From: Euglena gracilis
Taxonomy: Eukaryota
DNA: 64,000 nucleotides
Direction: 5' to 3'
Assembly (NCBI GenBank): GCA_039621445.1
Contig: CP154954.1
Location: 10,249,521-10,313,520, forward strand
This document shows, piece after piece, positions 16,840 through 61,307 of this stretch (the stretch's first letter is position 1; each line of letters begins with the position of its first letter). A program made the position numbers and the translations under genes. Below the pieces are notes generated by a model. That model searched no databases and was not told the origin of the DNA. It saw only the letters and a list, made by a program, of their open reading frames with translations.

Positions 16840-16979
16840 TATTGGCAGTTTTTTTTTTTGGCACCTTTGACCCCTGGTCCGGCCCAGTTCAAGCCGGGGG
16901 ACCCTCATGGGAGGTTAGCCAGCAGCCCAAATTCCTTCCAATGGATGGGGGTTCAGGTGTCTCCCCCACCCCCGGCCCG

Positions 16980-19900
16980 GCCCACGGTGTTGCTGGCGGA
17001 CCCACTCGCCCCCTGCGGGCTCGCCGCACTGCGGGACGTGCGGTGCGCCGCGGTGGGGCTCGCTGGAGGCGGCGCGGAGCTCCAGGCCGCGCTGGCGACG
17101 CACCAGCCGGCCGTCCTGGTGTGCCCCCGGCCACAGTTGCCATTTTCATACAAAATTAGGCACGTTTTTTTTTTTTGCCTCGAAACCTCACACTCAGTGG
17201 GTGGACGACCTGTGTGGTGTCGCCCAGAGGATGCAACGAGACTGACAGCAACATGGTCACATCTGTGTGCAACGTGGTTGAATTTTTCAGGCAATCCGAT
17301 TCCATTGTGTCAAGGTGAGGCACTGAAACCAGATATTTTTTTAGTTCGTGACCTGGGGGGTGGGCCGACCCCCCCCCCTCCAGGCAGGGGTGTCGGGCTG
17401 TGTGGGTACCCCGCCAGAGGCGAGGTTTTGTTCTTTATTTTCCGCATGAAGCACCAAAAAAAAATTTTTGGACCCAAAATTGACTCCCAAAAGTGGATCT
17501 CCCCCCAGAGAGTGGGTACGTGTGTCCGGACCCTCCCTCCCCCGGGTGCTGAAAAAACCTCTGATTGAGACTCAGAAGTTGTTCCTTGACTCTTTTTCCC
17601 GCCTTGTGGCAGGTCGTAAGGTCCACAAAGGTCACTGCAGCCATGATGGACGCCTGCCCGTCATTGCAGCTCATTCTGCGGGCTGGTGTGTGGGTGTGTG
17701 GGTGGGAAGGTGAGTAGGTGTGGGTGTGCTATGTGTGTGTGTTATGTGCCTCTGTGTGTTTGGGTGGGTGGGTAGGTGGGTGGGTGGGTGGGTGGGGGTG
17801 ATTGTCAGGCTTCTTTAAGCGGAAGTGCGCACCCCTGGGGGGTGGGTGCTATGGGCAGGCAGAAGGGTCGGTCATTTTTTGACTTCCCCGGAGGTTGGGT
17901 TTTGGGGTGGGTGGTGCCACAGCACACCCCAGAGCCGAAGGCGCTGTGGCTGAAAAATGGCTATTTTCAAGGGAAATTTGGCTTGGTCGGCAGGCACCAG
18001 GGTCCAACCCAAACTTCTTTTCAAGTCAGAAGACCCCCTGGGGGGGGGGGTAGGTCCGGGTCTGGACCCCCCCCCCCCCCGGGGAAGGTCCCGGGGGGTT
18101 TGGGGAATGCCCTCACACGGCCCGATTTTTTGGATCCCCCCCCCCCCCTAGGGGGGAATCCAATCCCGCGCCAGGGGACCCCCCTCCCCCCCCCCGGCGT
18201 CTAAAAGTGGCCGGGTCTAAACCCCCCTGGAAGGTGTGCCTGCTATGGAGAGACACCACATATGGAACAAGACACCCCGCCTGGTGTGTGTGTGTGTGTG
18301 TGCTGCTGTGTCCAATTGTGCATTGTATAGCTGGTGCGGTGCCTCTTGAAGGTTATTGCGGGTGCGTTTTGCATTTTTGAACTGAATGGTATTTTTGGTG
18401 AAGTTCAATTGCCTTTCTTGGTGATGTTTTTCCAAAATCCACACATGGCTTCCTTGTTTTGAGATATGATTTGGTGCGGGGTGGCCACAGGGGCGGGAGT
18501 GGACAACGTCGACGTCGCCCATGCTGCTCAGCGGGGAATCCACGTCTGCAATTGCCCCGGAATGAACGCCACCGGTGTGTGCGTTTGCCTCGGTGACCCT
18601 CGTGGTTCTTTTTCTCGAAGCTTTGATCCCTTGAACAAGGTAGCTCATTTGCTTATTTTATTATTTTATTTTTTATGACACAATGACATTTGCATGTTGA
18701 GTTGGGTTTCTTGAAACTTGCAACTTGACATTCCTACCCCCCCCCCGAAAAACTGTCACCGGGACCCTGACAATGACCCTGAAATTTCATATAATGACAA
18801 GTAGGCCGGAACCAGAGACCCTGATGGATTCCCGGGCGGGACCCTGACAGTTCCCCTGGAGGGCATTTCAAGCGAAAGTAAAAGAAAAAATGACCCTGGC
18901 AGGTTGGCAGTACCGGGCTCCCTGACAACTTCCTACTCACAGGTTGGCCTGCAATAGGGACCCTGACAGTTTTCCGGCAAGGACCCGGACGGGTTCTCAG
19001 GCATGACAGTTTCCCGGGGGGGGGGGGGGTATCAGGCCCACACGATCTCGAGGACAAGGCCCGACAACAAGGCGGTCATAAAAAGACAGGATTGTTTATT
19101 TAAGGACCTGCTGATGTGCTGGAACAGGAATTTTTTTATTTAAGGACCGCCCAGGCTGACGATGGTCATCATTGGATGACAGAAATCAGGGAGGGGATTT
19201 TGGCCGCTGCATTCTGCTGCAGCAAGCGCAATCAGGTGGCAGCATCCCGGGTTGGATGAACCACGGGTTGCTTCCCGAAAAGGTTGTCAACCCCGGTGGG
19301 ACGACAAACGGTTGGAAAGGTGTGTGGTGTCTGGCTTTCCGTCATTTCCAGCGGTGGCGGAGCTCACAATCGGCCTCATGATCGCTCTTGACCGCCGGAC
19401 AGGGTTTTCTAAAGTATCGGCTCTTCACTGTGGAGGGTCTGGACCAGGCATTTTTAGGGCGAATTTTTTTCAAAAAGTTTTAAAGTTTTCCAAGCGTTTT
19501 TTAAGGTTTTCAAAAACTTAAAAAACACTTTTTTAACGCAATTTTGAGAACTTTTGAGTATTTTTAAGGTGTCTATTTTTCCAAGAGCACTCAAAAAACC
19601 ATGCTGGCATCGAACCAAAGTTGGTTCAGGTTGAAAATCAAAAAGTTCAGAACAGCAACAATTTTTTTTTTCGGTTGATAGACAATGCTTCAGCGAAGCC
19701 AAAAATCATCTCCCCCCGAGTTGGCTTGTTTTTGCCATATTTTGTTATTTCTTTTTGCTCGAAAAAATTTTTATGGTGTTTTAAGGCGCCTTAAAAAAAA
19801 TGCCTGGTCTGGACTCGGGAGGAGGGCGATTCATGGGACCCCGAAATTTTGCACCAAAACCCATCCTTCTTTCAAAGCACTTTTAAACAAAATGCCGAAC

Positions 19901-22240
19901 ACCAAATGGATCCTTTTGACGATGCCGCTGTTTAGGTGTGGGGTGCCCCCCACCCCACTCCATCTCCCCTGCTTGAACGCGAACCCTGCCGCCGGATCGT
20001 CGAAAACGTCACCGACAGCCGGCAGGGGCGGTGGGCCAAGGCAAAGCACTCCGCCGCCCTCGGCCTGGCAGGTGTGCAGTCCGGGGGTGCGCCGGGATGA
20101 CAGGTCAGTGTGTGTGATTGCTGGTTTGTCGGTTATCGCAAAATTCCCCCGCGATGAATAATATTTTTTTTCCAACCGGGTGGTAACAATGGATGACATC
20201 GGAGCATATTTTGGTCATACGTCCTATTGTTTGCTCTCAAAAAATGACGAAGGGCATTGTGCTTATATTTTTAAACTTTTTTGTGCCAATTTGTTTTGAT
20301 TTCAAATTTGCTTAAGTTTGAAATAGAGAAAACAACAAAACATCCGGCCAATTTTTTTTGGTTCATTTTAGGTTTTTTTAAGTTTTCTTCTGTTCGACGA
20401 TTTCGGATTTGGTGAAGCCAGTCATTCTGTACTTGAATACTCTTGTATTGCATTCGTACATTATCATACCCCCCCCCCCGGGCAATTGACGCCCCCAGGC
20501 AATTGACGCCCCCGGGCAATTGTCACCCCTGGCTGTGCCCGCCAATTTGTCACTCCGGGAAATTGTCACCCCCCTCTGTGCTGCCCAATTTGTCACCCTC
20601 CCGCAGAAGATGTCTGTGAATTTTCTTTTCGCCGACATAACTCGATTGATCTTCTATTTTGCTACAACGTGCTGAGAACTTTCGCATACCAAATGTTCTG
20701 CAAAATATCACAACCATAGCTGCATTTTTGCGCGTTCATTTGTGTTTTAGATGTTTTTTTTTTGGTTATTTGGTTTTTACATGGGTGGGCAATTGACACC
20801 CCTGGGCAATTGACGCCCCCGGGCAATTGTCACCCCCCCCCCCTGTGTGCTGCCCGATTTGTCGCGCGACAATTGCCGGGGGGGCGGCGGGTATCTGAAT
20901 GAGGCAGAGAAGTTTTTTATGTGACGTCATTTTTCATTATTTGTGCACTCTTAATTTCGTGGGTTGTTGGGCACCCCATGGGCATATATTTTCTGCTGCT
21001 CTCGTTGTCAGACTGCCCTCAACTTTGCGCAGCGCATTGCACCACAGGGGCTGGGGCGGGGACGTGCCAGTGTGCACTAATGTGTGAATGGCAACATCAC
21101 CAACGTCACAAAAAACCCTGCCTCCAAGCGCGATGCGGATCACGGCTTGGGCGATGTTTCCACTTCCAATCACTCCCAGCGTGCGCCCTGCGTGCGCACA
21201 GACACAGAATCACATCAGGGGATAATTGTTTGTTTTTTGAACTCACATTTCACAGCAAGGACAGCAATTGTTTGTACACCCTGATTTTTTTCGGTGGTGC
21301 CCAAACCCCGGCTCATAGAATGTGGTGACGGTGGAATTTTATTTGTTCCAGTATTTGCCGGCCCAAAAATACCTTTTCTTTTTTTTTTTTTGAGGTCGAC
21401 AGTTTCATATGAATGGGTGTTCCACACTGGGGAGGGGGTAGTTTGAAAAATCCCAATTATATTTTGGTAAAAATTTGCCTAGTCATCTCACTTTTTTTGG
21501 TGCTTATCGCTGTCTTTCAATATATCTCTTGGTTGGTCTGGTGGGAATGCCATTTTCCATGGCTTGGAATCCGGCACGTTGAGCCAAGGAGGTGAGGAAG
21601 TCTTGGACCGCTGCGTGTCGCTTGTAAAGGTTGTTGAATTTGCAACATAACAGGTGATGTCCTGAAACATCCAATGTTCCTTGGCATTTTACCACATGCC
21701 ATTTTCCCCGAAGGTGGTTGTGAAACTGAAATGTGAAACCATTAGGATTCCCAGCTGATTTTCTGAGTTGGTGAATGGCTTCTGCCAATCGTTGACGCCC
21801 GGTCAAACTTTAAGATTGTGCGCCAATATGCATAGAAATTAGACCCGAGTTTCACTGGCTGGCTCAAAAAGAAACCTCTTCTAAAATATGTGAATTATTT
21901 GAAATGAAAAATTACCCATGTGTCTGTGTGTCAAAACAGTTGAAATTGTTCTTACTCACTCTCTTCTTTCATCTTCCCGCAAAAATTCCCTTTTTTAAAC
22001 GCTTTTTTTGAGATTTCTTGAGATAAAAATATATTGTCCAAAGATCCACCAACCGATTGTCCAAAGATCCACCAACCGACTGGAGGACCCCATTTTTGAT
22101 TTGATAAACCATGGGGGGGCAGGGGGCAAGAGGGTCAACAGGAGCTATTCAAACCTTTCAAAATCTAAAGAGCTCTGTTCTTGATGCAGATGAACGTCAT
22201 CTGTTGGGGCCGGTGTGTGTGTGTGTGTGCGCGCGCGCGC

Positions 22241-22271
<31 letters not shown>

Positions 22272-25200
22272 TGCGCGTGCGTGTGTGTGTGGGTGCGTGT
22301 GTGTGTGCGTGTGTGTGTGTGTGTGTGTGTTTTGTTTGCTCCATCTCAGCAGCACATATGCACGTGAATGTGTTTGTGGGGGGAGATCTGCAAGTTTTTC
22401 AAATTTCCACAATCTTTCTTCACCTTTTGCTTTGTCCCCTTCATTTCTCTTCCACCGCATTGGCTTGAGAAGTTGCAATCAGTTATATTCATTAATTGCT
22501 GAGCTCTTCAGTGGAAGGTTCTGTGTATATTTTGCTGATAGATTTGTTTAACCAATGAAAGGTATTTCTATAATGAAATTCTTCCTTCAGTGCCATTGCT
22601 TCCCGCCACATTTGGAGTAAAGCCCAAAACCAATGTCAATTTTCCCAATCTTCCCCCAATTTTCACATTTTTGACAGCCTCCAACAACAGTCCCCCCTTC
22701 CTGAATTTTTTTGCCCAAACAAGAGCAAAGAAGCAGCCCCATGCGAAATTGTCGCCATCAGGTCTTGGCATAAGGGTTCGCAATTGTAGATTCATTTTAA
22801 AGCCTCCCCTGGGGGTGTTTCCAAGAGTGGGTGGGTGTGTTGGGGTCCCAGGAAAAAAGTGCCCCCCGGGAAACGACTAAGTGAATCTATGAAGACGTCG
22901 GTGAAAAGACGTTGGTGGTCAAGACGTCGGTGAGAAGACGTCGGTGAGAAGACGTCAGTGACAAGATGTCGGTGACAAGGCGTCGGTGACAGCCCATCAC
23001 TGGAAACTGATAGTTATTTTTTTTGGAAAATATCAGCATACCTTGGGGCTTTTGATTTGTCAAGATGATATCACCCAGGTCTCAAAACAACTTGTGTGGG
23101 TGACATTGCGTCAGGTTGCTCGTGAGCTCTCCCCATGGTCGCCAAATCGGCAAATGCCTTGTCCACAATCCTCCTTGGCATTGGGGGGTGGGGGGGGCTG
23201 GTTTTAGTTCCTGAATGGAAGATCTGCGAGGATGGCCGAGGCGGGACCTCGCTCCTTCGGATTTCACAGCTCACAGCTGGCTGCATTCTGCATTCCGGTC
23301 TCTGCCCAGGTCTCTAACTGCAGAGACGGCTGCAAAGCTTGGGACCAGGCTGCTTTGCTGAAGGCCAGGGGGGAACGTCCTCTGCCTTTCGTAGGCATAG
23401 GGGGTTGGCGTCCATGGGCTCGGCGCTGACGGGGTCCAGATCTCAACAGAGAGATGCATGGCCAACCAACTTGTCCATGTCCCCAGCTGGGTTTCTTCAA
23501 CGGAGAATTCTGTCGGGCACGGCTTGTTTCAGGGTGGACTGCAGCATCCCTGATATCTGCTGTCGGCACCCAGGGTCCCAAACAACTCGGAGTGCCTCTT
23601 TTGTGCCGCCATTCCCTTTCAGATTCCTCTGTTTTTTAAAGTTTTAAAGTTTTTTCTTAAATTATTATTTAAATTGGTTTTCAATTTATTATTATTATTT
23701 GAATAAATTTGAAATATTATTAAATTTATTAAATTATTATTTTTCTGTTTTTTATTAAAGTTTAAATTTGCATTTTTTTCCATTTTGTGTCATCCTCAAA
23801 GTGGCAGAAAACATTAGCACATTCCAGATTTCGGACAAAAGAACAAAAGCGTGGAACCCTGGGTCGGTTTCAACAAGAAGGCTGGGTGCCCCCCCCCCCG
23901 GGGACAACAGGAAATCCGCCTGGAGGCAGTCGGCTTCCGCCACTCCCCGCTGGCTGTGGCCGCCGACGCACACGTCGTGACGCTGCACGTCGCTGCCGGC
24001 CAGGGCCCTGGCCTCGAAGGAGTCCCCCCCCACCAAGACTCATTTCTCTCAGAGCTGCAGACCGCTTGAGGTGATGACTTTTTCCCACGTTTTGCATTTG
24101 CATTTTTGTTTGCATTTGCAGACTGTGTGAAACAGGTTGGAATGTCGTCGAAACCCCCGATGAACAAAATCATATTTCGGTAAATATTGCTAACTGCAAC
24201 CTCATTGGAAGTAACAACAATGGTTTTCAATTGTACCAGTCTCTCCACCGCTGTCCTCTGTGCCCGCTCACCTATATTTTAGTATGGTTCTGTACCGGCT
24301 GATTTTGTTTCCAATTTTTTCACAATTTTTTTTTATCAGTTGTTTCGTTGAAAAAGACGAAAATCTCATTGAATTTTTTTGGATTATATTTTCCTCCTCG
24401 ATTGGGGACCCCCTTTTTATATGGCTTTTTTCGAGGGAAATTTGCCTGGACACCCTGGGCTGTTAAATTGGTGGGCACCCCTCGGGGGGAGTAGGGGAGT
24501 GAAGGCTGCAAACTTATTTTGAAAAAAAATTAATTAATGGTAATTTAAAAATTAATAAAATCCATTGGAAATACAAAACAACACAAAGGTAATTTCAAAC
24601 CAATTCGTAAATTTAAACTCTTTTCGTCGATAAACCTGTGGATGGCGACATGCTCATTACCTTGGTTGTCGACAGGTCCCTACGAGGAACGCAATACGGC
24701 GCATTTCTCGTCCACAGGGGAAAAAATAAACATGTCTTCAATCCCTCATCATTGGCACGGAAATTCGAAGTTTTTGTGAAATTTTTGTGGCTTCAGCCCC
24801 CCCCCCCCCAATCTCGAAATCCGACCAGGGGCCGAAAGATTGCTTATTTTCAACCCCCAGGGGGGAGAGGCCCCCACCCACCCACCCACCCTGGGTGGGG
24901 TGGCGGGCTGGGGAGGGGGAATCGGGGCGGTCTGACAGCAAGACAAGGCAAGGAAGGTCGACCGGGGGGTGGGGGGGGGGGGGGTAATTGAAGCGCGAGG
25001 CGAAGGGTGATCGGACCGCCCCTCCAACTGCCAGAATGGGGTTGGAGGTTGTCGACAGCCACCACCCGGGGTTTCTGGGACTGCTCAGTCCCGCTCAGTC
25101 AAACTTAGGAATCGGGGCGACACGTCAATCAGGGATAAATTCAGCCTATATTTGAACCTAAATCCTTGCCCCAACCCAACCGTTCTTACCCCCCCCACCC

Positions 25201-25293
25201 GTGGTTTTGTCTGATACGGGGGGGGGGGGGGGGGGGGGGTTCAGCCGGCCAAAATTGGCTGAAAGTTGCCCCTCGGTGCCTCAGGCGCCGGAG

Positions 25294-25325
<32 letters not shown>

Positions 25326-28024
25326 CGCCAAAGTCCATCGATTTGCAGCTTTTCACGCTCACGGCTCCGGGTAGGCCGCTGGGCAGCCAACCGGGTTGGC
25401 CGCCGTCGCGGAGGCCGTGCGGGCCGGGCTGTGCCGCCCAACACGGAGACGGCGGGGCTGGCGGGCTGGGACTTCTTCCGGGCGTTGCGGCCTGGGGCCC
25501 TCTTCCTGAACACGACGCTGGTCTCCTTTGTGGACGAGGAAGCCCTGCTTTGGTCCCTGCGGGAGAAGGGCATCCGAGCCGGTCTCCGTCTTCTTACGTT
25601 GTGGATTTTTCGGGCCAAAAATTATTTATATTTTTTTAATTAAATTTCTTTTTTATTTTTTAATAATACAGGTATTTTAATTCGATCCCGTACATGCATC
25701 CACACAAAGGGGCCCAGCGAAGACGAGTGGACCCGGAAGAATTTTGGTACAAAGCGCCGAATTTTTTTTTGGAAAAATGGCCATTTTTGGTATTTTTTTG
25801 TGGGTTCACCTCAAAATTTTGGCCCAAAAAAAGGACAACTGAACTGTATTTGGGTTTTTTGCCTGTTTTCGGGTCCCACCCAGGTCCAGACTGGCAGCCG
25901 GGTTCGATTCTTTCTGGACCCCCACCCCCTTGGGGGGGAGCTTTTTCCAACTTAAAAAAATTACCTGACTGGCATACCAAAATTGTAGATGGCCAAATAT
26001 CCCAAAGTGTGTGTGTGGGCGGGTGGGTGGGTGGGTGTAGGTGTGGGTGTGGATGTGGGTGTTTGGGTGTGTGGGTGTGGGTGTGCGCATGTGCATGTGT
26101 GTGTGTGTGTGTGTGTGTGTGTGGTTGTGTGTGTGTTGTGTGTGTGCGTGTGGTTGGGTGGGCATTGGTGTGTGTGTGAGCCAGTCAGACATTGCACCTT
26201 CAGGAAATCTCCAGGATGCGGCCCTCAATAGCAGCCTCTTGAAGACCAGTCGGGACTGGGAGAGCTGTGGCCTGGGGTCCAAAGCGCTGTCCCCCTCTCG
26301 ATGGACATTGTTGGGACTTTTTGAGTGGTGCTTTGTGCAGTTGCACGCAAAGGAACCACTCAAATAGTTCATTTGCGCAAAGGTCCAAAGTCAATCTTTT
26401 TTTGAAGCCTTAACAGTGGGTATTTCTGAGACTACCCCCCCCCCCCCTGTCGTTCGACCACCCCTCATTTACGACCACCCCCCCCCAGTCGCAGGTTGCA
26501 GGTCGCAGGTCATGGGGGTGTTATGACCATCCCTCCCGGTCACAGGTTGCAGGTTGCGAAAAATTTAAGACCATTTTACCTACGACCACCCCCCCCGGTC
26601 ACAGGTTGCAGGTCATGGGGGTGTTACGACCCCCCCCCCCACCTGGTCACAGGTTGGAGGAACCCGGTCGGACGACAAGGGGGGGCGGGTAACACAGCGT
26701 CAACTAAGTCGACGTGTTTGTGAAGAGCATCTGAGATTCAAACAATTTCAAACAGCGTCTCAGGGTGTTGCAAACCCCCCCGCTGGCGCAGGGCTGGACG
26801 TGTTCCAGGGCGAGCCTGCCGGTGGGGCCGGGGAGTTCCGCTCCGCCCTCGCAGAGCACCCCAACGTGTACATCACCCACCACATCGGGGCCGCCACTGA
26901 GCAGGCCCAGGGTGTGTGGGTGCTGGTGGATTGGGGTTGTGTGTCTATCAAGGTGGGTGGTTGTGTGTTGTGCATTTTGCGCATTGTGTGTTCTTTATGT
27001 GTTGTATGTGTGTGTGTGTGTGTTGTGTGTTGTGTGTTGTGTGTTGTGTGTGTGTGTGTGTGCGCGCGCGCGTGTGTGTGTGTGTGCGTTTGCATGTGCA
27101 GTGCGTGTGTTGTGTGGGTGCGTGGGTGTGTAGATGTGGTGTGTGTTTGTGTCCAGTTTTATGTCATTTTCAAAGTGAGTTCTCTTGGTTGTGCGCAGCA
27201 GGATTGTGTGGGTGTTTTGTGGCATTCCGCGACTGGTGTTTATTTGTGTCGCAATGCAGTAGACGATCCCCCAGACTGCACAGGGTCAAAATCCATTGAA
27301 ATGCCTATGAGACGCAACCCGGGAAATTGTTGGGGTTCTTGCAATTGTCCGGCCTGCTAACAAGTCGTCCGGGTGCAACGCTGGTGGGCCTGTGTGGTGA
27401 CAGCAAAGATGGATGTGTTTCGCATATTTCCGCATTTTTGCGTTTTTTTGTGCAAAAAAAATTCAATTTTTTCAAACACATTTTTTTTTTGCTTTTGGAA
27501 ACACATTTTTTCGTGATTGTTACAATTTTTTTCGCTTTTTTTTACCACTTTTGCAATTTTTTGCAAATTTTAAAGAATTTTGAAACTGAAATTTTCCTCA
27601 TGATTCCATGCAATGTAAATTGGTTAAAATTTTTTAAAAAAATTTAATTGGTCAAAAAATTTTTAAAAATTTTTGTTTGGTTAAAATTAAAATACAATTA
27701 TTGTATATTGGTTTTACGTACGTTTTCATATAATTTTTGCACATTTTCTCTCAAAATTTGGAGCATTTTGCGCATTTTTTTTCTTCAAAAAGTACGCATT
27801 CTTGTGCATTTTTTTGTGCATTTCTGCGCATTTTTGCACACTTTTGTACAATGTTTTCGAGGCCAGGCGAGTGCATGGTCGCGTCGGGGGTGGTAGCCTA
27901 CGTGAGGGGTGCCGCATCGCTCTCTCGCATCGCGCCTCTGTCAGACGCCACGGCGCTGGAGGCTGTGCGGGTCATCAAGGCGTTCGTGGAGGACAGCGTG
28001 GTGCTGAATGCTGTGGTGCCGTGA
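16980..28024 (+). CDS. PHGDH: D-3-phosphoglycerate dehydrogenase-like enzyme (D-isomer-specific 2-hydroxyacid dehydrogenase), at least 12 exons, one of them inverted
   Basis: Exons 16980-17118, 17613-17685, 18491-18574, 19352-19396, 19994-20071, [21124-21187 on - strand], 22183-22212, 23310-23342, 23928-23997, 25440-25581, 26792-26911 and 27945-28024 join in frame. Product: ...[166 protein letters not shown]...LDVFQGEP...[32 protein letters not shown]...*. Family motifs [11 protein letters not shown]-x-x-AVAE, GxGxIA, LDVF-x-x-EP and HIGA are present. Start codon not fixed. Confidence 0.9.
18737..19029. mobile_element. TA-flanked MITE with poly-C/poly-G termini
   Basis: TA|CCCCCCCCCCGAAAAACTGTCA...TGACAGTTTCCCGGGGG(G)n|TA with internal CCCTGACA repeats. 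Partial relatives occur at ~1845, ~2600-2697 and ~51213. Confidence 0.75.
19400..19988. mobile_element. hAT-like MITE that constitutes nonconventional intron 19397-19993 of the dehydrogenase gene
   Basis: TIR CAGGGTT / AACCCTG with a perfect 8-bp TSD CCGCCGGA at 19392-19399 and 19989-19996. Removing the element plus one TSD copy restores GAC CGC CGG ATC (DRRI). Confidence 0.9.
19445..19806. mobile_element. hAT-like MITE nested inside the intron-MITE
   Basis: TIR CAGGCATTTTTAGGGCG / CGCCTTAAAAAAAATGCCTG with a perfect 8-bp TSD GTCTGGAC (19437-19444, 19807-19814). Confidence 0.9.
20469..20891. mobile_element. TA-flanked MITE with poly-C/poly-G termini
   Basis: TA|(C)nGGGCAATTG...CAATTGCCGGGGGGGCGGCGGG|TA with internal GGCAATTGACGCCCCC direct repeats. 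Confidence 0.7.
21124..21187 (-). CDS. Inverted 64-nt exon of the dehydrogenase gene (Rossmann NAD-binding motif)
   Basis: The minus strand reads cgcag|GG CGC ACG CTG GGA GTG ATT GGA AGT GGA AAC ATC GCC CAA GCC GTG ATC CGC ATC GCG CTT GG|agg-cagggttt, i.e. (G)[20 protein letters not shown](G). Both phases match the flanking + strand exons. Confidence 0.9.
21520..21700 (-). mobile_element. Remnant of an RLE-type (CRE/SLACS/R2-like) non-LTR retrotransposon C-terminus
   Basis: With frameshifts the minus strand reads [47 protein letters not shown]...QPRDIL. This matches a CCHC zinc knuckle, an RH motif and a P-x-D-I endonuclease-like motif. Confidence 0.6.
22891..22990. repeat. About 14-bp tandem repeat (AAGACGTCGGTGA)
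   Basis: About seven degenerate units. Confidence 0.8.
23343..23927 (+). other. Nonconventional intron
   Basis: CTT GG|gac-CAGGC...GCCTG-gaggc|A GTC. Register N3/N5|R; the join restores KLG-VGF. Confidence 0.8.
23998..25439 (+). other. Nonconventional intron
   Basis: GCT GCC|ggc-CAGGGCCCTGGCC...GGGCCGGGCTGTG-ccgccc|AAC. The arms pair with one mismatch and one bulge; the join restores the family-like HVAANTET. Confidence 0.65.
26435..26689. mobile_element. TA-flanked MITE with poly-C/poly-G termini
   Basis: TA|(C)nTGTCGTTCGACC...GGTCGGACGACAAGGGGGGGCGGG|TA with internal GTCACAGGTTGCAGG repeats. Confidence 0.75.

Positions 28025-42103: not shown

Positions 42104-61307
<19,204 letters not shown>

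Follow-up and report, generated by a model that had tools for sequence, protein, structure and literature searches.

How can an otherwise intact gene come to carry one of its internal exons on the opposite strand, and what would become of its product? The question is raised by a phosphoglycerate-dehydrogenase-like gene in a 64,000-nucleotide (nt) stretch of Euglena gracilis contig CP154954.1 (assembly GCA_039621445.1), referred to here as the window; all coordinates are positions in it. The window contains no N or gap, has a guanine-plus-cytosine (GC) content of about 50%, and is clearly eukaryotic and intron-rich. The gene has 12 exons between about 16945 and 28024, of which 11 lie on the plus strand and exon 6 alone lies on the minus strand. 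The order, strands, phases, and borders of the exons are direct observations; the explanation favored for them, with a probability of roughly 0.5, is a real, recent micro-inversion that turned exon 6 in place and would block normal splicing.

Exon 6 Lies on the Opposite Strand

A first-pass annotation, made from the sequence alone, had claimed that the exon for the nicotinamide adenine dinucleotide (NAD)-binding segment of a dehydrogenase is on the minus strand, and homology searches bear this out. Pfam scans of 150 plus-strand stop-to-stop open reading frames (ORFs) of at least 28 amino acids, from about 16 to 28.6 kilobases (kb), gave 2-hydroxyacid-dehydrogenase matches at 17565-17714, 18463-18675, 25263-25640, and 26569-27357. 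Among 145 minus-strand ORFs there is a single such match, in the ORF at 20940-21209, whose residues 7-29 align with positions 35-57 of the 178 positions of PF02826 (expectation value, E, 0.011). No relative scored in word-based homology searches with exons 10 and 6. With the exon 10 peptide as query, HMMER run in full against 1.84 billion representatives returned 54 relatives, for which the best NCBIfam match is phosphoglycerate dehydrogenase, with a score under the equivalog cut-off. A profile made from 17 relatives of 290-430 amino acids was then searched, with all filters off, against all 2658 six-frame stop-to-stop ORFs of at least 8 amino acids in the whole window. The plus-strand exons fall in colinear order at profile positions 2-49 (exon 1), 48-73 (exon 2, E 5e-6), 70-101 (exon 3, E 4e-10), 100-116 (exon 4), 114-143 (exon 5, E 4e-6), 180-206 (exon 9), 204-255 (exon 10, E 1e-17), 253-293 (exon 11, E 2e-15), and 294-317 (exon 12); profile segment 140-162 is matched only on the minus strand, at 21191-21123 (15.6 bits, E 7e-4).

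Exon 6 occupies 21124-21187 (64 nt) of the minus strand and encodes the GxGxxA segment of the NAD-binding domain. It has a cag acceptor at 21190-21188, directly followed by GG at the start of the exon; downstream of the exon the minus strand continues with aggCAGGGTTTTTT. As had been proposed, exon 5 (to 20071), 21187-21124, and exon 7 (from 22183) join in phase without a stop. The 12 joined exons amount to 990 nt, or 330 codons with zero stops, which holds only with exon 6 reverse-complemented. Residues 14-330 of the conceptual product align with profile positions 2-317 (399.5 bits), an alignment that requires the minus-strand exon, and identity with the relative P0036 is 48.7% across 318 amino acids. 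The catalytic (PF00389) and NAD-binding (PF02826) domains are both present and colinear once the minus-strand exon is counted.

No GxGxxG/A exon occurs on the plus strand in 20072-22182, again as first claimed: the profile search gave no plus-strand match to this segment, and the nearest plus-strand profile match (2.0 bits, E 9.5) is at 23298-23402, in a frame overlapping exon 8. The remaining minus-strand profile matches are noise (E 2.3, 13, and 17). A regular-expression search of the same interval for GxGxx[GA] found one minus-strand match, which is exon 6, and two plus-strand matches at 22117 and 22118, in a G-rich tract without surrounding homology. Exon 6 thus sits at its expected place in the exon order with its strand alone reversed, and it is at the DNA level only that exons of one mRNA are seen here on opposite strands. 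An antisense paralogue was considered and ruled out, no other minus-strand exon having scored. An 11-nt tandem repeat, CCCAGCGTGCG (2.5 copies, 81% matches), extends over 21175-21201, across the acceptor border of the flipped exon.

The Remaining Exons and the Predicted Enzyme

The other exons are all on the plus strand. Exon 1 (16945-17118) has an in-frame ATG at 16945 and a GT donor. Exons 2 (17613-17685) and 3 (18491-18574) each have an AG acceptor and a GT donor and match PF00389 at positions 45-70 and 68-98 (E 1e-7), respectively. Exon 4 (19352-19398) is followed by a non-canonical intron, and exon 5 (19996-20071) ends in GCA G before a GT donor at 20072. The short exons 7 and 8 were placed by tblastn and alignment: exon 7 (22183-22212), of 10 residues, has a non-canonical upstream border and a GT donor, and exon 8 (23310-23343), found by tblastn with P0036 residues 172-183, has an AG acceptor and a non-canonical downstream border. 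Both borders of exon 9 (23923-23997) are non-canonical. Exon 10 (25440-25581) matches PF02826 positions 99-148 and has a GT donor; exon 11 (26792-26911) has an AG acceptor and a GT donor. Two copies of the residues R-A-G-L are readable at the exon 10/11 junction, one at the end of exon 10 (25572-25586) and one, in different codons, at the start of exon 11 (26788-26799); the GT-AG choice takes part of each. Exon 12 (27945-28024) would end with TGA at 28022-28024 if the sequence past 28015 is unspliced; with the two extra codons and this TGA past the aligned part of exon 12, a full product of about 332 amino acids is plausible.

The predicted protein resembles D-3-phosphoglycerate dehydrogenase and other D-isomer-specific 2-hydroxyacid dehydrogenases in having both Pfam domains and an end-to-end alignment with its relatives, and 31 of the 36 near-invariant columns covered by the exons match. 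Its dinucleotide-binding loop, GSGNIA (GxGxxA), is the part encoded by exon 6 on the opposite strand. It differs from D-3-phosphoglycerate dehydrogenase in that the third glycine of this loop is alanine, the active-site arginine is leucine, and exons for an ACT domain were not found; its relatives, too, score under the NCBIfam equivalog cut-off. Conserved arginine, glutamate, and histidine residues form the active site of D-isomer-specific 2-hydroxyacid dehydrogenases. The arginine is not conserved here, whereas the EP and HiG columns of exon 11 match. It lies in exon 10 and is present in 50 of the 54 relatives; of the four without an aligned arginine, two are poor alignments, P0054 has leucine, and P0039 has glycine. 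Around the lost arginine (25512-25526), three codons specify L, V, and F; at these positions the closest relatives carry R, G or S, and V. Within its family the protein may already be non-standard or inactive, which would weaken any argument from selection for the NAD-binding exon.

A Putative Micro-inversion of Exon 6

We infer from the sequence that the organism has this arrangement, and likewise what its size, age, and cause would be. In the favored reading a piece of about 0.1-0.25 kb was flipped in place, taking with it exon 6, the AG acceptor and some tens of bases of the intron before it, and the start of the downstream intron. Before the flip, exons 5 and 6 would have been joined by removal of an ordinary GT-AG intron and exons 6 and 7 by removal of a non-canonical intron with pairing ends (CAGGG at its start with CTCTG at its end). 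After it, the plus-strand transcript would hold exon 6 in antisense only, so ordinary cis-splicing would be unable to give the full enzyme. Splicing from the exon 5 donor at 20072 to an AG at 22171-22172 keeps the frame without exon 6, omitting the NAD-binding loop; in-frame skipping of this kind is expected by chance one time in three. Since all 12 exons are open and in phase, the flip is probably recent; DNA breaking and rejoining at the transposon-like CAG..CTG intron ends beside exon 6 may have caused it. A real inversion disabling this allele had been the second choice of the first-pass annotation; it is now the leading reading, unproven as all the explanations are.

The suggested length of about 0.1-0.25 kb comes from strand composition. 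On either side of exon 6 there is an excess of T over A (skew +0.2 to +0.3), which is near zero only in 21000-21299. A 4-mer strand model trained on the remainder of the first 48 kb gives positive log-odds from 20000 to about 21080 and from about 21230 to 21760, and negative values only over about 21020-21260. The only A run of at least five between 20240 and 21364 is an A6 at 21110, amid T runs. Together these features outline a zone of reversed composition at about 21020-21260, by a weak statistic.

The first-pass annotation found no inverted repeats marking breakpoints, which stands for long ones: none longer than about 23 nt occurs within 19000-23500, and self-BLAST of the window showed neither a long inverted repeat nor a second copy of the gene. 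Short ones do exist near exon 6. At the right edge of the reversed zone lies a CAGGG..CCCTG hairpin (21203-21296) with seven perfect base pairs (bp), ATCAGGG with CCCTGAT, which may have arisen by chance. An 8-nt A6/T6 inverted pair is formed by CAAAAAAC at 21109-21116 and GTTTTTTG at 21232-21239. Staggered breaks, an inversion between CCCTG and CAGGG, and an inversion between the A6 and T6 arms were each tried as models, and none fits the local repeats cleanly.

A perfect 23-nt tandem duplication on the plus strand at 22033-22078 is real, as was first noted, but its suggested role as a junction scar finds no support: it lies about 850 bp from exon 6, outside the reversed zone, and is one of 33 tandem-repeat rows in 15 kb, so nothing ties it to a junction. 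The interval between exons 5 and 7 also holds a repeat element at 20466-20895, with inverted poly-C/poly-G ends and internal 17-nt repeats of the GGGCAATTGAC type. A similar poly-C/poly-G end is found at 19011-19033, and 18795-19029 has diverged copies at about 2600-2674 and 51219-51290.

Several points weigh against a recent inversion. The orientation of exon 6 comes from one assembled sequence, and exact-match scans of metagenome contigs with a stretch of exon 6 and a stretch of exon 10 gave no match and hence no independent confirmation. The strand-composition signal is weak, the held-out background having a mean of 3.8 with a standard deviation of 12.5 and 38% negative values; the lowest log-odds at exon 6, -10.4, is not an outlier. 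The breakpoints could not be fixed to a single base, and the local repeats carry no clean signature of a known inversion mechanism. The replacement of the conserved catalytic arginine by leucine hints that constraint had relaxed before any very recent inversion, a hint that is ambiguous since two relatives also lack the arginine. The intact gene and its splice signals fit an artefact or a functional trans-spliced arrangement equally well; intactness is an argument only against an old pseudogene.

Introns with Paired Ends

Seven of the 11 introns (1/2, 2/3, 3/4, 5/6, 7/8, 10/11, and 11/12) are GT-AG, although in intron 5/6 the canonical pair is now split, with the GT donor on the plus strand and the AG acceptor on the minus strand. 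The other four (4/5, 6/7, 8/9, and 9/10) start with CAG(G) and end with (C)CTG. The clearest case is intron 4/5, which starts with CAGGGTT (19400-19406), ends with AACCCTG (19982-19988), and is bordered by a perfect 8-nt direct repeat, CCGCCGGA, at 19392-19399 and 19989-19996; it looks like a young transposon-derived intron. Within this intron (19399-19995), 19437-19455 and 19796-19814 form a 19-nt inverted repeat. Intron 8/9 has complementary ends, CAGGC and GCCTG. Direct repeats at the 6/7 and 8/9 borders are not clear-cut, and an 8-nt target duplication at exons 6/7 is an indecisive reading. At E below 1e-5, no further copy of the non-canonical introns was found within the window.

The arm next to exon 6 had been noted to pair over 11 nt with 22167-22177 on the plus strand, and this pairing is real, including three G-U pairs. 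Full pairing with the arm is possible at 20 of 63990 plus-strand positions, 22167 among them; by rough arithmetic that allows about a dozen registers next to exon 7, the chance of such pairing is about 0.4%. The duplex energy of the stretch before exon 7 is unremarkable, ranking about 560th among 2200 windows and being equaled by 8% of shuffles. The minus-strand arm CAGGGTTTTTT and the plus-strand AAAGAGCTCTG at 22167-22177 are likely the two ends of one former hairpin-type intron, AAAGAGCTCTG being the 3' end of the former 6/7 intron; three other introns of the gene have the same CAG..CTG ends.

The exon 6 arm has a further potential partner nearby. An imperfect inverted repeat is formed by a plus-strand arm at 20901-20927, which resembles the end of exon 6 and the start of the following intron, and a minus-strand arm at 21103-21124, at the boundary of exon 6 and its downstream intron; they share 22 matches over 27 columns, with gaps. 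In folds of a 240-nt antisense stretch the terminal stem of 20901-20927 closes in both the minimum-free-energy and the centroid structure, and the fold as a whole is not unusual (z -1.44).

Alternative Explanations

The likeliest cause of the arrangement had at first been thought to be a misoriented contig. That idea loses ground, because the window has no gap, composition is reversed only over about 21020-21260, and no long inverted repeats flank this zone. A smaller-scale version, in which the organism itself carries exon 6 in plus orientation and a short stretch was turned around when DNA was amplified, reads were processed, or the assembly was built, is unlikely but comes next after a real inversion. 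The gene is otherwise perfect, with 330 codons, no stop, and the right phases, as a normal gene with one mis-oriented piece would look; the metagenome contigs supplied no independent sequence matching the orientation in the window; and template switching could have used the microhomologies CAAAAAAC and GTTTTTTG near the edges of the zone. Such an error would, however, have needed two clean junctions within about 200 bp in a sequence without N or gap, over a zone much smaller than a scaffolded contig and without flanking inverted repeats long enough to mislead an assembler; and the repeat at 20901-20927/21103-21124 is diverged (22/27), hence not a fresh duplication artefact. It is quite unlikely that both orientations coexist, with the assembly having caught one of them, whether strains or cells are polymorphic for the orientation or short inverted repeats let the segment flip back and forth. 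An intact gene fits a functional orientation that persists in the population, and short inverted repeats lie on either side of exon 6; these are short and imperfect, though, and no recombinase family was matched in Pfam scans of ORFs of at least 28 amino acids on both strands from about 16 to 28.6 kb and of at least 125 amino acids elsewhere. The first-pass idea of a switchable inversion is thus left unsupported, with neither inverted repeats of recombinase-site length flanking the exon nor a nearby recombinase gene, the two marks of a site-specific invertible switch. Fourteen DNA-type sequencing runs under the same organism label contain a fraction of 0.56-0.62 of the words sampled from the region, which makes them close to it and not identical, and they are silent on orientation.

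If the inversion is real, the gene could still be rescued by trans-splicing, with an antisense transcript supplying exon 6; this is decidedly unlikely. Exon 5 would be joined to exon 6 through the GT donor and AG acceptor, and exon 6 to exon 7 through the paired ends of the non-canonical intron. Both splice borders of exon 6 are intact with fitting phases, the other exons are all intact as continuing selection would predict, and full complementarity between the antisense RNA and the sense intron might keep the two molecules together. Yet antisense transcription and two trans events would be needed for one internal 64-nt exon, and the loss of the catalytic arginine makes strong selection for enzyme activity doubtful. 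All 27 GT-repeat runs in the bins covering 1-32000 are on the plus strand, with none on the other, which suggests transcription in one direction. The first-pass annotation had listed trans-splicing guided by stem pairing as the last of its four possibilities. The 11-nt pairing between the post-exon-6 arm and the sequence before exon 7 is rare and speaks for such a guide, but it makes better sense as what is left of the two ends of one hairpin-type intron. The exon 6 arm also has the longer same-strand partner at 20901-20927, with a stem present in both folds, and the duplex energy before exon 7 does not stand out. Least probable of all, to the point of being scarcely credible, is a germline-type scrambled gene whose pieces are removed or turned at the DNA level as in spirotrich ciliates. 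Direct repeats at some borders, such as CCGCCGGA at exons 4/5, and the one inverted segment would suit it; against it stand the seven ordinary GT-AG introns of 11, the GC content of about 50%, the lack of any need for a reassigned stop codon, and the description, in passages of PMC7789003, of repeat-bounded introns with hairpin ends that are removed at the RNA level in Amoebophrya.

Comparison with Known Systems

The closest counterpart to an in-place inversion of part of a gene is eri-6/7 of C. elegans, in which, according to extracts of PMC11414722, a part of the gene is inverted, the ends of DNA transposons are implicated in turning it, as they may be here, and the rearrangement lies within one functional gene. 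In eri-6/7 the whole 5' part is inverted between long repeats of transposon-end origin, and repair of the inverted eri-6 by trans-splicing is demonstrated, as the same extracts describe. The Euglena arrangement, known from DNA alone, differs in concerning a single internal 64-nt exon, in having only short, imperfect repeats, and in needing two trans joins. Trans-splicing of introns has a further precedent in Giardia, where 5 of 11 introns are given as trans-spliced in part of PMC6679479.

The non-canonical introns described here resemble those of Amoebophrya, including introner elements, in having borders that are not GT-AG, complementary ends, and direct repeats over the borders, and in sharing a gene with canonical introns. 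The portions of PMC7789003 that treat the Amoebophrya introns give inverted repeats of 8-20 nt, short direct repeats of 3-5 nt, and analyzed lengths of 40-1000 bp, and call the splicing mechanism unknown. In the clearest Euglena case the inverted repeat is 7 nt and the direct repeat 8 nt, and the introns, predicted from DNA, are 0.6-1.4 kb long. In maize the ends of DNA transposons can invert the DNA between them through alternative transposition of Ac, as outlined in a section of PMC8225341. No transposase, element family, or target-site duplication at a junction was found in the window, and transposon ends may be linked to the inversion of exon 6 by analogy. Presumably the CAGGG intron start with an 8-nt flanking repeat is a likeness to hAT elements.

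Should the arrangement be no more than a recent micro-inversion, it amounts to an ordinary null allele; should it be an artefact, to an error of assembly. In either case it would serve mainly as a warning for gene prediction where introns are non-canonical. It deserves notice that the gene is otherwise intact and that the flipped exon keeps both splice borders. Exon 6 also adjoins an intron of a type whose removal is thought to need pairing of its ends, by a mechanism not yet known; were it trans-spliced, end pairing would be enough to direct such splicing between molecules. Four raw RNA sequencing runs exist under the same species label, and mapping them could show whether these intron ends act between two RNAs or, equally, whether transposon-like intron ends rearrange exons.

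Other Features of the Window

Nothing in the window was matched by Rfam, and a dinoflagellate spliced-leader motif has no match in it at up to three mismatches. Pfam scans of 123 long ORFs outside the gene gave two weak matches on one ORF, both under the curated cut-offs. An unbroken run of 22 G occupies 25218-25239. In the bins covering 1-48000 there are 37 runs of at least four GT and two runs of at least four AC; from about 48 kb onward AC runs dominate (13 GT, 68 AC), which suggests that the transcribed strand changes near 48 kb. At 54989-56966 a degenerate array of CA dinucleotides extends over about 2 kb (about 1023 copies, 79% matches) and accounts for the extreme AT skew and the long stop-free frames of that region.

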